The position numbers and the translations under genes are program-made. DNA of 35,156 bases from the NCBI GenBank assembly GCA_003552565.1, contig PUNB01000122.1:1-35156 (forward strand). The letters run 5' to 3'. Below the pieces are notes generated by a model. The model did no database searches and was not told the origin of the DNA. It saw only the letters and a program-made list of their open reading frames with translations. Positions 6,189 to 26,731 of this stretch are shown here, piece after piece. Source of the DNA: Lentisphaerota bacterium. Its GTDB lineage: Bacteria > Verrucomicrobiota > Lentisphaeria > Oligosphaerales > PUNB01. Positions within the stretch are counted from its first letter, which is position 1. Each line of letters begins with the position of its first letter.

Positions 6189-6821
6189 ATGATTGCAGTA
6201 ATTGATTACCAGGCTGGTAACGGCACGAGTGTGTTAAGAGCACTGCGGAGTCTCGGCCATAAGGCGGAGATAACTTCCGATCCTGAGGAGGTCAAACAGG
6301 CGGAGCGGGTGATTTTTCCGGGAGTGGGAGCGGCCGGAGCCGCCATGGACAGCCTGCGTCAGCTTGAGCTGATAACTGTTTTACGCCAGGTGATTGAACG
6401 GCAGACCCCGTTTCTGGGGATATGTCTGGGATACCAGCTTCTGTTTGAACGAAGCTTGGAGGATAACACTGAGTGTTTGGGGGTGCTGCCCGGTGAAGTT
6501 GTCGGATTTCCTGCTGGCATGCGGGAGTCGGAAAGCGGCCAGGCTCTCAAAATCCCCCACATGGGATGGAATCGGGTAGACGGCACGGCGGCCCCCCGGT
6601 TATGGCAAGGGATCGAAGAAGATACAGAATTTTATTTTGTCCACTCTTATTATCCGGATATCCCCGAGCGGTCGCAAAGAGAATTAGCCTGTATGTATAC
6701 AGATTACGGGGTGGATTTTGTCTCCGGAGTGCATGACGGAAACCTTGTTGGGGTGCAGTTTCATCCCGAGAAAAGCGGTCGGCCGGGGCTCGCCCTGCTG
6801 GATAATTTCTGCCGAAGCTGA
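6189..6821 (+). CDS. hisH: Imidazole glycerol phosphate synthase, glutamine amidotransferase subunit
   Basis: IDYQAGN, FPGVG, LGICLGYQLL, IPHMGWN, YFVHSY, QFHPEKSG; RBS AAGGAG. Confidence 0.93.
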   Translation: MIAVIDYQAGNGTSVLRALRSLGHKAEITSDPEEVKQAERVIFPGVGAAGAAMDSLRQLELITVLRQVIERQTPFLGICLGYQLLFERSLEDNTECLGVLPGEVVGFPAGMRESESGQALKIPHMGWNRVDGTAAPRLWQGIEEDTEFYFVHSYYPDIPERSQRELACMYTDYGVDFVSGVHDGNLVGVQFHPEKSGRPGLALLDNFCRS

Positions 6822-6845
6822 AGCGCGAGCGGGTCGTCCGCGGAA

Positions 6846-6926
6846 TAGTGAGACTTGTTGAATGGTTTCGGGGTCAGGTTTTCGGGTTTGAAGGCTGGAA
6901 CCTGAAACCACGAAGTCTCATACAAG
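6846..6926. repeat. Heptamer (GGTTTCA-like) repeat module bounded by TGAGACTT/AAGTCTCA
   Basis: cctgaaaccacgaagtctca (6901-6920) is the exact reverse complement of 19211-19230. Confidence 0.7.
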
Positions 6927-7060
6927 CCCGGCCGCCGGCTCGATGCGCCGGATACCCTGAGGGTGAAACCTCGATTGACGATAGCGGGCGACGAGAGCGG
7001 ATTATGATTAAAGCGTGTCCTAATCGTCCACCGCTCTCGTCGCCGTTAACGTAACCGCTT
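6927..7060 (-). repeat. GACGA-rich palindromic repeat plus arm
   Basis: Hairpin ggcgacgagagcgg...ccgctctcgtcgcc; arm matches 89-133 and 26328-26362. Confidence 0.75.
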
Positions 7061-7083
7061 AGTAGGCCGGTGTTACATAAGCT

Positions 7084-7197
7084 GCTATACCAAAGCGGTG
7101 AGAGCTCACCGCACTCCGAAAGAGCCTTCGGCTCGGTGTCCCGAACTGATGCGAAGCATCTTTGGAGTGCGGCGGCCTGACGCCGCTTTAAGATAGC
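7084..7197. repeat. Inverted REP doublet (REPIN-like), GGAG type
   Basis: aaagcggtgagagctcaccgcactcc (7092-7117) and ggagtgcggcggcctgacgccgcttt (7164-7189) in inverted orientation, each a tetranucleotide plus GC hairpin. Confidence 0.75.
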
Positions 7198-7212
7198 CGC
7201 GGTGTTTCACAT

Positions 7213-7264
7213 AAGGTTTCAGCAGCACAAAAGCAGGTGCTAACCCTTTCCGCACGGGGTTTAA
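7213..7264. mobile_element. Truncated MITE-like element, interior type C (one end only)
   Basis: aaggtttcagcagcacaa...aaccctttccgcacggggt-TTAA resembles 12476-12524; terminal repeat abuts the TAA stop of the response regulator. Confidence 0.65.
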
Positions 7265-7926
7265 TAACTGTCGTGCTGGACATATTCCGTGGCGTATTGC
7301 AGGAGTTCAATTGAATTTTTAAGTCCCAGTTTGCTTTTTATATTGGCCCGATGGGTCTCGACGGTTTTGACGCTGAGATTTAACTCAGCGGCGATATCGC
7401 TTGTCTTTACACCGCTGCCGATAAATTCCAGAATTTCGAATTCCCGATTGGTGAGGCCGTGAATCGGCGGCGCTTCAGCTCGAGAGCTTTTTCCTTTTCC
7501 GCCCACTACAGGGGCCAGAATACGGGTGTACATGGCTTCGCTTAAATAGGTGTTGCCGGCGGCGACCCGTTTAATGGCGCTGATCATTTCTCCAGCTCCT
7601 TTTTCTTTCATTATGTAGCCATTGGCTCCGGCCTTCAGCACTCTTTCGGCGTAAAGAGCTTCACCATGCATCGACAGAACCAGAATCGGCTGTCGCCAAC
7701 CCTGATCCCGCAGATCGCGAATCAGAGAAATGCCGTTGTGTTCTCCCAGAGAAATGTCAAGCACCAGTACGTCCGGGGCGGCGGAATTCAGAGCTTCGAG
7801 AGCTTCTCCGGGGGTGCCTGCTTCGGCGCAAACCTGCAGCCCCGGCTGCTGTTCGATCAGCTGCGCCAAGCCGCGACGAACCAATTGATGATCGTCAATC
7901 AGCAGAATTTTGATCGGTCCGGTCAT
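7261..7926 (-). CDS. NarL/LuxR family DNA-binding response regulator
   Basis: REC domain (LIDDHQLVR, LVLDISL, LSMH, GANGYIMK) plus HTH (LTNREFEIL...LSVKTVETHRANI); no adjacent kinase. Confidence 0.95.
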   Translation of the reverse strand: MTGPIKILLIDDHQLVRRGLAQLIEQQPGLQVCAEAGTPGEALEALNSAAPDVLVLDISLGEHNGISLIRDLRDQGWRQPILVLSMHGEALYAERVLKAGANGYIMKEKGAGEMISAIKRVAAGNTYLSEAMYTRILAPVVGGKGKSSRAEAPPIHGLTNREFEILEFIGSGVKTSDIAAELNLSVKTVETHRANIKSKLGLKNSIELLQYATEYVQHDSY

Positions 7927-12061: not shown

Positions 12062-12247
12062 CTAGACCCCGTCCGGAAAGGGGTAGTATGCCGAATTTGT
12101 GCTGAAAAAACCTTGTCTCGAACCTTGTCCCGAACCAAAATCCGATTGGTTTTAATGTTTTCATCCCAAATGGAATATGGTTCGGGACAAGGTTCGGGAC
12201 AAAGTTGAACTCAAAACACACAATACACCTTTCCGGATACCCTCGAG
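12062..12247. mobile_element. MITE-like element, interior type C (stack unit 1)
   Basis: CTAG-ACCCCGTCCGGAAAGG...CCTTTCCGGATACCCT-CGAG; internal inverted gaaccttgtcccgaacca / tggttcgggacaaggttc. Confidence 0.85.
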
Positions 12248-12434
12248 CTAGACCCTCCGCGAAAAGGGTTCGGAAACGAGATTAAGGCGAAAGATTAGGT
12301 CAAAAGATTAAGGGGCGCACCCGTTTTTCCCTAATCTTTCGTCATAATCTTTCGCCTTAAGTCAATTGGCCGTGAAACGCACAGCCACTTTCGAGCATGT
12401 GAGCTCCACAAAACCCTTTTCGTTTAGCCTCGAG
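12248..12434. mobile_element. MITE-like element, interior type B (stack unit 2)
   Basis: CTAG-ACCCTCCGCGAAAAGG...CCTTTTCGTTTAGCCT-CGAG; closely similar to 14319-14505 and to the reverse complement of 21855-22029. Confidence 0.9.
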
Positions 12435-12532
12435 CTAGAGGGTATGCGAAAAGGTATATTGTGTGTTTTCGAGACAAGGTTCTCGGCAGCACAATTTCCG
12501 CTCACAACCCTTTTCGCGGAGGGTCGAGCTAG
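12435..12532. mobile_element. MITE-like element, internally deleted type C, inverted relative to unit 1 (stack unit 3)
   Basis: CTAG-AGGGTATGCGAAAAGG-tatattgtgtgtttt...cgagacaaggtt...CCTTTTCGCGGAGGGT-CGAGCTAG; matches both ends of unit 1 reverse complement. Confidence 0.85.
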
Positions 12533-14277: not shown

Positions 14278-14318
14278 CCTAATAATTCATGCGAATTCGG
14301 CCATGCGTCATTTCAGGG

Positions 14319-14505
14319 CTAGACCCCATGCGGAAAGGGTTCGGAAACGAGATTAAGACGAAAGGTTAGGGCAAAAGGTTAAGGGGCGCACCCGTTCTTC
14401 CCTAATCTTTCGTCATAATCTTTCGCCTTAATCCAATTGGGCGTGGAACGCACAGCCACTTTCGAGCTTGTGAACTCCAAAAAACCCTTTTCGCATAACC
14501 TCTAG
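14319..14505. mobile_element. MITE-like element, interior type B
   Basis: CTAG-ACCCCATGCGGAAAGG...CCTTTTCGCATAACCT-CTAG; followed by an orphan terminal repeat gaccctccgcgaaaagg at about 14511-14527. Confidence 0.9.
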
Positions 14506-19204: not shown

Positions 19205-19245
19205 CCTATGTGAGACTTCGTGGTTTCAGGTTTCAGTGTTCAGGT
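19205..19245 (+). repeat. 16-bp junction motif plus heptamer repeats
   Basis: cctatgtgagacttcg-tggtttcaggtttcagtgttcagg between ppx and ppk1. Confidence 0.7.
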
Positions 19246-21811: not shown

Positions 21812-21854
21812 TATTGTTCTTTTTCCTTTCTTAAGAGTGTTGTTGAAGGTTTCG

Positions 21855-22029
21855 CTAGACCCTATGCGAAAAGGATCTTGTGGAGCTCTCAAGCTCGAAA
21901 GTGACTGCGCGTTCCACGGCCAATTGGATTAAGGCGAAAGATTGTGACGAAAGATTAGGGGGAGAACGGGTGCGCTCCTTAATCTTTCGCCTTAATCTCG
22001 TTTCCGACCCCTTTCCGGACGGAGTCTAG
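21855..22029. mobile_element. MITE-like element, interior type B (reverse orientation)
   Basis: CTAG-ACCCTATGCGAAAAGG...CCTTTCCGGACGGAGT-CTAG; right CTAG contains the TAG stop of the upstream gene; about one GATTA unit shorter than the other B copies. Confidence 0.9.
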
Positions 22030-23043: not shown

Positions 23044-23107
23044 TGTTTGTTGGAAAGCAATCTGACTATCAAGCAATTTCCAGTCGGTGTTATTGAATAT
23101 TGCCGAG

Positions 23108-23356
23108 TTAGACCCTATGCGAAAAGGTATCGCACCCATGCTCCCGCTTGTTTCGGATGAGATTTCGGTTTTCCTCGGAAAACCGGAAGATCGCCGAAAC
23201 AAGCGGGAGCCTTATCGGGTAGGGGTGCGGCGGGGCGTCTCCGGTTTTTATGCCGCAAGTCATTAGCGCTGAGGCTGGTAACTGACGGAACAAAAACCGG
23301 ATCAGACCTGCCGGCGCTCCCAACAAGGGCGTGAGACCTTTTCGCATAAGCTCGAG
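23108..23356. mobile_element. Composite MITE-like element (type A module plus second hairpin module)
   Basis: TTAG-ACCCTATGCGAAAAGG...CCTTTTCGCATAAGCT-CGAG; first part is the reverse complement of the 6019 element minus 35 bp; second part has a ccggttttt...aaaaaccgg hairpin. Confidence 0.85.
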
Positions 23357-26271: not shown

Positions 26272-26327
26272 AGAATCAGGTGGCTTCTCTGAAACCTGTC
26301 CCCAGAAATCATTGAGCGAGTCTCTCA

Positions 26328-26378
26328 CTCGGGGTATACGGCGCATCGCGCCGGCGGTCGTGCTTATGGGAAACATCG
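26328..26378 (+). repeat. Arm of the GACGA element plus 16-bp junction motif
   Basis: ctcggggtatacggcgcatcgcgccggcggtcgtg-cttatgggaaacatcg versus reverse complement of 6911-6961 ctcagggtatccggcgcatcgagccggcggccggg-cttgtatgagacttcg. Confidence 0.75.
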
Positions 26379-26584
26379 GGTTCTTCGTTTGTTGTTTTCG
26401 GCGGTTAACGAGAGGTTTTTCCAATATTTTTGCGCTGGAAATTTTGGTTTTATCGATACCCCCAGTTAAGAGTTTTGGTTGGTTTGTAAAAATGGCGACT
26501 TTGTCATTTTTGTTGCTTAAGCGGGTCAGTTAAGCGGGTCGCTTAAGTGTGTTTGAGCAAGGGTGGGGGGGTAAGAAAGCGATT

Positions 26585-26731
26585 AAGTGTTTAGAAGAGA
26601 AGCGTGGAGAACATGACACTTAATCCCGCACTTCATCGCACACGTAAGCCCACGCTTAAACTATCTGCTTCGTCGGTATTGGGCATGAAGAAGATCAACA
26701 ATATACCCACAAATACCGCTGACGAGGCAAA
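26585..26731 (+). repeat. ~150-160 bp intergenic repeat with conserved hairpin, copy 2
   Basis: Reverse complement of 2675-2835; preceded by ttaagcgggtc tandem units at about 26517-26550. Confidence 0.85.

Follow-up and report, generated by a model that had tools for sequence, protein, structure and literature searches.

Mosaic arrays of short intergenic repeats, such as the bacterial interspersed mosaic elements (BIMEs) of enterobacteria and the Neisseria intergenic mosaic elements (NIMEs), have been known for decades, and how their modules are joined is not clear. According to excerpts of the papers cited here and below, the NIMEs are long intergenic arrays in which a short conserved repeat alternates with 50-150 bp repeats of more than 100 families; a site-specific recombinase was proposed as their builder, and the repeat dRS3 serves as a phage integration site (PMC1797815). 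Repetitive extragenic palindromic (REP) sequences and BIMEs are high-copy GC-rich intergenic palindromes in mosaics, and their movement in trans has been ascribed to an HUH Y1 transposase, the REP-associated tyrosine transposase (RAYT, TnpA-REP) (PMC3333891, PMC2817692, PMC3733652). Members of the IS91 family use a 5'-CTTG/GTTC target (CAAG/GAAC on the other strand) adjoining oriIS without duplication, and have palindromes at both ends, a cleavage tetranucleotide at terIS and single-stranded circles (PMC13181058); short right-end fragments of IS801 move in trans (PMC3189936). In this study, we analyzed an intergenic array on contig C268 (hereafter the window, meaning the whole stretch of 35,156 nt), which belongs to a 275-contig, 2,086,424-base assembly (G000, 86% complete) of an uncultured salt-lake bacterium. 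The modules of this array, located between a hisH-like gene and a regulator gene, are joined by a related 16-nucleotide motif. We favor, with a probability of about 0.55, the reading that this 16-mer forms the 3' terminus of small mobile units of 80-320 bp, which are non-coding and make up one family.

Whole units inserted 3' of CAAG- and TAAG-type sequences

The first-pass annotation of this DNA had reported the motif from the window, where its excess over chance is marginal: there are four matches with at most one mismatch vs 0.72 ± 1.02 expected, and 2 of 100 shuffles reach four. Genome-wide, the excess is overwhelming. The degenerate 16-mer of that annotation has 188 matches, CGAAGTCTCACATAAG with up to three substitutions has 332 (about 16 expected), and the 12-base core GTYTCAYAYAAG has 404 copies (about 2 expected), which confirms that the motif is real and far beyond chance. 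A looser version with up to two mismatches in 12 was discarded because about 157 chance matches were expected, and the strict core was used instead. Most of the cores (351/404) are outside open reading frames (ORFs) of at least 100 amino acids. They form 297 separate arrays or solitary copies spread across contigs, and units anchored on the motif account for 43.9 kb or more of the 2.09-Mb assembly (at least 2%).

When the arrays were printed segment by segment, the parts of a unit appeared in a constant order: a GC-rich hairpin B, a variable palindrome X, GTYTC, and the tail AYAYAAG. The full unit reads 5'-[B: CCCGACC-GCCGGCGC-GAT-GCGCCGG-ATACCCCGAGG-GWGARAC]-[X]-[GTYTCWC]-[AYAAG]-3'. B is a conserved 45-nt element (consensus CCCGACCGCCGGCGCGATGCGCCGGATACCCCGAGGGAGAGAC), usually located directly 3' of AAG; with a profile derived from 174 right flanks (404 in all), 374 copies were detected in the genome. 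X is a palindrome of variable sequence and length with at least 15 families, and X arms rich in the heptamers CTGAAAC/GGTTTCA occur in this genome. The end of B covaries with the motif (GAGAC with GTCTC 102 times, GAAAC with GTTTC 31 times and mixed combinations 14 times), indicating that GARAC of B pairs with GTYTC of the motif and that X is carried on a conserved stem base. The stem-loop of B starts 7 nt past the joint, the stem base GTYTC(WC) ends 5-7 nt ahead of the terminal AAG, and the final 7-8 bases (CAYAYAAG) are unpaired in the fold. The 16-mer had been taken for an autonomous site, which it is not: its first four bases are the end of a variable X arm (CGAA, CGGT and others), the next five are the conserved stem half, and only the last 7-8 bases, the tail, make up the joint.

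Two comparisons of filled and empty sites revealed insertion of whole units. At G000:C92:5343-5534, a 192-nt unit (B, X of the 'GTGGCTAT' family and GTCTCACATAAG) splits a repeat exactly after ...CATATGCAAG; the flanks are contiguous in 6/6 native copies (left 84-91% and right 87-98% identical), five of which read ...CAAG. At C273:4260-4439 on the minus strand, a 180-nt unit splits another repeat after ...TCTAACAAG; the flanks are contiguous in 12 of 15 native copies, and at the site 10 of the 15 read ...CAAG and two more read other ...AAG. Target duplication is absent in both cases. Moreover, several repeat families found 3' of the motif have a native ...AAG at the joint, in 35/37 copies of the CTCACAAG-type, 34/43 of the GAGACAAG-type, 11/15 of the CGAGCAAG-type and 5/6 of the TATGCAAG-type. 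These results show that the units go in whole and in a single orientation, directly 3' of a CAAG/TAAG-type sequence, and that the target is not duplicated. Since insertion takes place exactly after ...CAAG, the unit's own tail recreates the landing site, and since each unit ends with ...CAYAYAAG, later units land behind earlier ones, giving head-to-tail mosaic arrays with the motif at every joint.

The same preference is evident for B in general. AAG ends within 3 nt of the B start in 277 of the 338 copies with an intact 5' end vs 11% of random positions, and CAAG or TAAG is found within 3 nt ahead of it in 273 copies. A motif (up to three mismatches) precedes 238 of the 374 B copies. Outside motifs, B follows 26 of the 51 CATACAAG sites and 12 of the 46 CACATAAG sites; seven of eight control 8-mers gave only 0-2 of 13-74 followed by B, and the one-base variant TATACAAG gave 5/25. 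The upstream 60 nt are single-copy in 12 of the 34 non-motif sites that precede B. We also considered an 8-bp target-site duplication. In 15 solitary full units, however, the 5-mer on the left is unlike the unit's own tail (ACAAG vs ATAAG), against 8 in which they are the same, and the tail variant within X families is independent of whether B follows (pooled odds ratio 1.5, p = 0.18), which rules the duplication out.

These joints also bear on a conservative recombinase (tyrosine, serine, or IS110-type DEDD with a guide RNA), which would use CAYAYAAG as crossover core and integrate circles in Campbell fashion at core-like sites including the end of a resident unit. Such an enzyme would fit the one common 8-mer at each joint and its copy at both ends of solitary full units. 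Moreover, the array junction of about 55 nt (motif, B and GAGAC) is imperfectly palindromic, as many recombination sites are, and the X modules are bounded by a 7-base inverse core/core (GWGARAC...GTYTCWC) recalling the attC of integrons. On the other hand, the sequences flanking the 8-mer (..GAAGTCTC and CCCGACCG..) do not form inverted repeats of each other, unlike those of most recombinase core sites, and the 8-mers at the left and right of one unit are frequently different, as in the above 15 units against 8, although conservative recombinases require identical overlaps. The targets of the two filled/empty cases have only CAAG in common, and this is not long enough for recognition by a guide RNA or of the arm type. 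IS110-family genes are present inside X positions, between the B end and the motif, in a relative of another family (G019), but their ORFs end 278 and 354 nt before the motif and not at the AAG joint; in this 86%-complete genome, no match to an IS110-family gene was found. We therefore regard a conservative recombinase as unlikely.

Neighboring motifs within 420 nt are on the same strand in 107 cases and on opposite strands in five, and a terminal inverted repeat of a MITE (a miniature transposable element with inverted repeats) was ruled out because adjacent copies are direct, not inverted. Among the 395 motifs away from contig edges (nine more are at edges), 192 are followed by B and 203 by other sequence, so that the break after AAG is sharp. 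The non-B right flanks are mostly unique DNA, with singletons accounting for 149 of 393 right flanks. As for the left flanks, 15 families cover 346 of 393 copies, and each family was seen both beside B and beside unique DNA. The 107 neighbor pairs include 59 distinct ordered X-family pairs vs 56.4 ± 2.4 in shuffled arrays, and same-family neighbors are not enriched (9 vs 12.0 ± 3.1). The view of the first-pass annotation that different repeat modules are joined at the motif is thus supported, as 15 left-flank families combine with B, other modules or unique DNA on the right and neighbors are random; this random assortment is not that of one fixed repeat in decay.

It might be assumed that no dedicated machinery is involved, and that the arrays are old decaying composites whose modules were shuffled by homologous recombination or gene conversion at the junctions of about 55 nt, or are assembly artefacts. 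About 400 similar junctions would provide ample homology, and 132 of 338 junctions have an exact 31-mer in common with another copy. Truncations exist on both sides of the units without a sequence signature, the pieces of the hisH locus covered by contigs of sequencing runs from 2012 and 2019 are identical, and a relative of the same family (G001) holds decayed motif versions. Nevertheless, homology cannot put whole units after CAAG in unrelated repeats with exact, duplication-free joints, nor does it explain B beside CAYAYAAG in single-copy DNA (the 12/34 above) or the sharp break after AAG in the 203/395 motifs directly followed by non-B. In addition, neighbor families are as varied as shuffled ones, hence no fixed composite, and an exact 55-mer is common to only 10 of the 338 junctions. 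This explanation seems quite improbable to us.

The array in the window

The features of the array, its neighboring genes and the related copies in the window are as follows.

6847 to 6926, plus strand: unit 1, 'heptamer' unit (H family), 5'-truncated, with stem base GTGAGAC...GTCTCA and tail kept and without hairpin B
6911 to 6926, plus strand: motif copy 1, CGAAGTCTCATACAAG, in which the final 4 nt of the X arm are followed by GTCTC, the stem base's 3' half, and then by the tail ATACAAG
6927 to 6971, plus strand: hairpin B of unit 2, GC-rich conserved stem-loop ending GTGAAAC, directly 3' of AAG (nhmmer 6927-6970, E 3.4e-11)
6972 to 7067, plus strand: X module of unit 2 ('GACGA' palindrome), a long stem in the fold
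7068 to 7081, plus strand: motif copy 2, CGGTGTTACATAAG, closing unit 2 at its 3' end and two bases short of the usual length
7082 to 7199, plus strand: body of unit 3, branched palindrome in the fold ('C module', CTATACCAAAGCGG...CCGCTTTAAGATAG), directly 3' of AAG and without B
7200 to 7215, plus strand: motif copy 3, CGGTGTTTCACATAAG, 3' end of unit 3, with 19 exact copies in the genome
7216 to 7264, plus strand: tail of another repeat family (earlier called type-C MITE), joined in register at its own point between ...GACAAG and G
6189 to 6821, plus strand: class-I glutamine amidotransferase gene (hisH-like), ORF, left neighbor of the array (Pfam GATase, E 8.1e-22)
7261 to 7926, minus strand: response regulator with LuxR-type (GerE) DNA-binding domain, right neighbor (Pfam Response_reg 5e-25, GerE 1.1e-16)
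19205 to 19245, minus strand: lone 5'-truncated H-family unit with degenerate tail GTCTCACATAGG, arm match to the 6911 copy
26276 to 26378, minus strand: 3'-truncated unit, consisting of degenerate motif GTTTCCCATAAG, then hairpin B, then the left arm of an H module

Unit 1 aligns by BLAST with full units over 80 nt from full-unit position 36, and its hairpin is seen in the DNA fold. Unit 2 is full (6927-7081), with B, the GACGA palindrome and the short motif CGGTGTTACATAAG, which an ungapped 12-mer scan misses. The C module represents a right-flank family of 15 copies genome-wide. In the 26276-26378 unit, the B match (nhmmer 26360-26318) has an E value of 9.9e-11, and the alignment to full units ends after 87 nt. 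An excess of 5'-truncated units was considered as a sign of copying from the 3' end and dropped, since 3'-truncated units exist too and a motif-anchored search biases the count.

What the first-pass annotation had described at this locus agrees with our results: three direct motif copies on the plus strand (6911-6926, 7068-7081 and 7200-7215), convergence of the amidotransferase and regulator genes, as judged from ORFs and Pfam, and two reversed copies, reading CGAAGTCTCACATAGG at 19205-19220 and CGATGTTTCCCATAAG at 26363-26378. The copies at 19205 and 6911 have only the heptamer flank in common, with arms (6889-6920 and 19211-19242) that are 91% complementary over 32 nt, and the copy at 26363 has only the downstream hairpin in common with that at 6911. 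The supposed break of the type-C MITE at its CAAG-equivalent position was also recovered, as the sequence from 7216 is preceded by (A/G)GACAAGG in 7/7 other genome copies.

The locus region folds at -95 kcal/mol (z = -5.0 vs shuffles), far better than shuffled sequences. This fold and the many copies located 2-60 nt upstream of a start codon might suggest that the motif acts at the RNA level, as a promoter or transcription start, a terminator, a processing signal or part of a structured non-coding RNA. However, the orientation relative to the downstream gene is unbiased (147 co-oriented vs 137 convergent), and in 153 units the two strands fold equally (-54.98 vs -55.01 kcal/mol) with equal shares of G-U pairs (613/7485 vs 696/7641). 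A promoter or 5' leader was ruled out by this lack of orientation bias toward genes. A search of Rfam gave no family at threshold in the window, and the only match with E < 1 in 6700-7400 was a microRNA model at 21 bits vs a 70-bit cutoff. A role at the RNA level is thus hardly probable.

In contigs of public sequencing runs from a salt lake (X1, 2012) and a soda lake (X2, 2019), the flanks and parts of the array are represented, with 0-2 differences. None of these contigs spans any of the three joints by 31 nt on each side, and the joints listed for them come from other repeat copies. Neither an empty site nor a circle junction was seen in the contigs, which cannot show absence. In the same-family relatives G001 and G002, the gene neighborhoods downstream of hisH differ from that of the window, giving no clean filled/empty comparison.

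Summed contig depth over the modules (window 6861-7217) in X1-X3 is tens to hundreds times that of unique flanks, for example 7932 at 6912-6962 vs about 10 for unique flanks in X1. The modules are thus very abundant in salt- and soda-lake communities, the depth being no copy number of a single organism. At about 26500-26620 on the plus strand, the window also contains a copy of the family interrupted in C273 ('GGTTAAGCGGGTC...GAGCAAG' followed by 'GGTGG...TAAGAAAGCGATTAAGTG'), whose ...GAGCAAG site looks unoccupied and which is outside the 15 copies scored. Other repeat families occupy the window gaps 12062-12532, 14318-14505, 21854-22029 and 23104-23356, where the motif is not their joint. 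Among them are hairpins of the form CTAGACCC...GAAAAGGG as well as palindromes of GATTAAGGCGAAAG and of GGGACAAGGTT, and several of these sequences recur elsewhere in the genome as X modules.

Mobilization and relatives

As the simplest reading, we propose that the unit is a non-autonomous mobile element, which would land in one direction 3' of a CAAG/TAAG-type sequence and would then offer its own ...CAYAYAAG 3' end as the next landing site, so that arrays would follow automatically. A single-strand (HUH-type) transposase acting in trans may perform the reaction, in the way known from the IS91 family or the IS200/IS605 family, with B as the putative end abutting the target, and the X stem base plus YAAG as the putative terminating end. 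This proposal is based on the tetranucleotide specificity, the lack of duplication, the fixed orientation, the hairpin near the target-abutting end and the hairpin by a related terminal sequence. The units could further be self-stacking mobile elements of an undescribed class in Lentisphaerae-type bacteria, in which two short constant ends would suffice for a single-strand transposase, any palindrome between them would be carried along and the tail would recreate the target; we put this forward tentatively, giving it rather less than an even chance. Within a limited collection of literature, we found nothing relevant on such Lentisphaerae repeats or on head-to-tail stacking of HUH-type miniature elements. 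The first-pass annotation had supposed either a site-specific recombinase or the end of an HUH element. Its view that modules are joined by a site-specific process is largely borne out, and the HUH/IS91-like mechanism is the better of its two, given insertion after ...CAAG without duplication, but a matching enzyme did not emerge: among Y1_Tnp, Y2_Tnp and IS110-family genes, no transposase or recombinase with matching ends was found.

To get a view of relatives, the 14-base pattern RWGTYTCAYAYAAG was counted across 41 genomes of the same order. Hits number 383 in this genome and 87 in the larger, GC-rich genome of G019, a member of a different family of the order; G004, G007, G016 and G032 have 4-7 hits, and the remaining genomes have 0-2, about the chance level. 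In eight regions out of the 87 hits, G019 shows the same architecture, in which GTCTCATACAAG is followed by a B-like hairpin that ends in GAGAC, then by an X that is GC-rich and unrelated, and then again by GTCTCATACAAG. In G004, the motif GTCTCACACAAG ends a seven-copy repeat, all copies being about 105 nt from contig ends (L007, L020, L021; L062-L070), and another repeat family, elsewhere preceded by GGAGTTCACGCTTCAG, begins right after AAG. The architecture of the ends is thus conserved between families belonging to a single bacterial order. Within the same family, G001 has the decayed motif versions beside a 94% identical C module, and G002 has many stand-alone GACGA palindromes without B or motif. 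These facts indicate that the constant ends are older than the present expansion and that X-type palindromes also exist on their own.

Some other structures were noticed in these relatives. In G019 (L042-L061, L012-L018), tandem (GGGTTCA)n of variable number is found between the motif and the B-like hairpin and ahead of motif-less B-like copies. A structured stretch of about 200 nt (CTCCTGTGAAAC...), seen in the loci L026 (G019:C632), L014 and L025, is located upstream of an IS110-family ORF and also alone in X modules of G019 and G032 in either orientation. The sequence GTTTCACAGGAG recurs on both sides of that IS110-family insertion sequence (IS). The CTCCTGTGAAAC stretch may be a non-coding end of an IS110-family IS that was left behind or moves alone.

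Several facts speak against the reading of the units as elements moved by an HUH-type enzyme. The clean filled/empty pairs are only two, both within other repeats, and some right-flank families are natively located after ...TGAG (52/57) or ...GACG (52 copies). Truncated units were found at both ends, and 82 of the 374 B copies have no motif within 400 nt. In G019, the only other lineage sampled, the CAAG rule was not reproduced, as 17 of 20 sampled internal B-like copies (of 142) come after GGGTTCAG-type heptamers and CAAG is nearby in only one. At truncation points, CAAG, GAAC, TAAG, GGAC or CGAC was found in 7/119 cases vs 13/119 control windows, so the one-ended signature of the IS801 type, as given in excerpts of PMC3189936, is absent.

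The remaining adverse facts concern the enzyme and the assembly. A search for an autonomous copy gave no gene placed between B and a motif in the way such a copy should have it; the 37 motif pairs 600-3200 nt apart hold ordinary-looking ORFs or none, as judged with no protein-family scan. Neither the motif nor B is present within 2.5 kb of the four Y1_Tnp ORFs, and the single Y2_Tnp ORF (G000:C51:1-1119, minus strand, locus L073) is cut by the contig end. Its complete relatives in Lentisphaerae assemblies include two 2,275-bp IS91-family copies with 99.96% identity (L080 and L081), located 23 kb apart on one contig of a Lentisphaerales assembly. They have a palindrome of their own and end in ...AATTTCCTATCAGTT, which resembles neither B nor the motif, and the same holds for the ends of IS91-like loci of G019, G032 and G007. 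Of 41 relatives, 17 have Y2_Tnp, with no clear link to motif abundance: it was detected in four of the six genomes with at least four motif hits, and several motif-free genomes hold many copies. Finally, this is a fragmented metagenome assembly, in which 186 of the 404 motif cores are within 500 nt of a contig end. The repeat thus breaks the assembly, and array order may mislead; the exact 31-mers and 55-mers shared between junctions mean that some module orders could be assembly chimeras. Claims on array order are limited by the fragmentary assembly.

The Y2_Tnp ORF on C51 (IS91 family) has HUH-like HPHLH, RYYGHYS motifs and a C-terminal CPKCGG, with no recognizable start or N-terminal zinc domain, and a motif-like TTCTCATATAAG is present about 300 nt upstream on the same strand. 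In each of L080 and L081, a perfect 46-nt palindrome is located some 90 nt from the right end; the flanks begin with GTT(T/C).

Comparison with described systems

Helitrons are eukaryotic, kilobase-sized elements with an AT target, and neither they nor their non-autonomous forms have any sequence relation to the units. Integrons consist of a single platform with integrase and attI, and their attC sites are variable imperfect palindromes with a conserved 7-base inverse core/core, arranged in one direction. Here, too, variable imperfect palindromes are arranged one way between conserved 7-base boxes; on the other hand, the 297 arrays or solitary copies are scattered, and the segment between palindromes is the constant B and not variable.

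The IS200/IS605 elements insert as single strands 3' of a short specific sequence, in one orientation and without duplication; the cleavage sequence of their right end is related to but distinct from the target, and sub-terminal hairpins are similar at both ends. These elements and their miniature derivatives resemble the units in the mode of insertion, namely 3' of a short sequence, one orientation and no duplication. However, B (GCCGGCGC...GCGCCGG) differs from the X stem base (GARAC/GTYTC), which is a further point against the HUH reading, and no associated Y1 or TnpB gene is linked to the units.

With REP/BIME sequences, the units have in common that high-copy GC-rich intergenic palindromes are clustered as mosaics. 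The differences are that REPs alternate in orientation according to excerpts of PMC2817692, in contrast to the 107 direct vs 5 inverted neighbor pairs here, that the consensus CCCGACCGCCGGCGCGATGCGCCGGATACCCCGAGGGAGAGAC of B is without the GTAG or CGTC tag (taken from excerpts of PMC3733652) or its complement, and that none of the Y1 genes of this genome is flanked by the repeat. The NIMEs, in which dRS3 repeats alternate with RS elements, are closest in architecture to our arrays, as far as the excerpts of PMC1797815 show. The dRS3 described there is a symmetric 20-bp inverted repeat, ATTCCC-N8-GGGAAT, whereas the joint here is CAYAYAAG, asymmetric, and the units are one-directional. Moreover, the units are defined by a constant 5' hairpin and a 3' tail, and insertion of the whole unit was directly seen.

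In the present arrays, the joint can be read directly, because the end of a unit is the sequence after which units insert, and arrays grow behind the last unit. If the self-stacking class is true, it would provide a concrete, testable mechanism for building mosaic arrays of the BIME and NIME kind. The units, being abundant, with conserved ends and interchangeable hairpin interiors, should lend themselves well to a search for the enzyme and to the question of how the DNA to be mobilized is chosen. These repeats also explain many contig breaks in the assembly and annotation of such metagenome genomes.

The IS91 family (IS91, IS801 and IS1294) resembles the units in insertion adjacent to a tetranucleotide without duplication, CTTG being the complement of CAAG here. 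In excerpts of the literature, IS91 likewise has a palindrome at the target-abutting end and a palindrome by a related cleavage tetranucleotide at the other end, a resemblance that is structural only. A further likeness is that short non-coding derivatives are mobilized in trans (PMC13181058, PMC3189936). The units differ in that no Y2-encoding element with their ends was found and relatives of the genome's one Y2 gene end differently, and in that the signature of one-ended products at target-like tetranucleotides is absent from the 119 truncation points described above. They also differ in having about 400 copies with at least 15 interiors in arrays, for which the excerpts of PMC13181058 and PMC3189936 hold no such description. 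Membership in the IS91 or IS200/IS605 type fails because no transposase element has the units' ends; in the way they work, the units are nevertheless most like IS91-type (or IS200/IS605-type) HUH elements.

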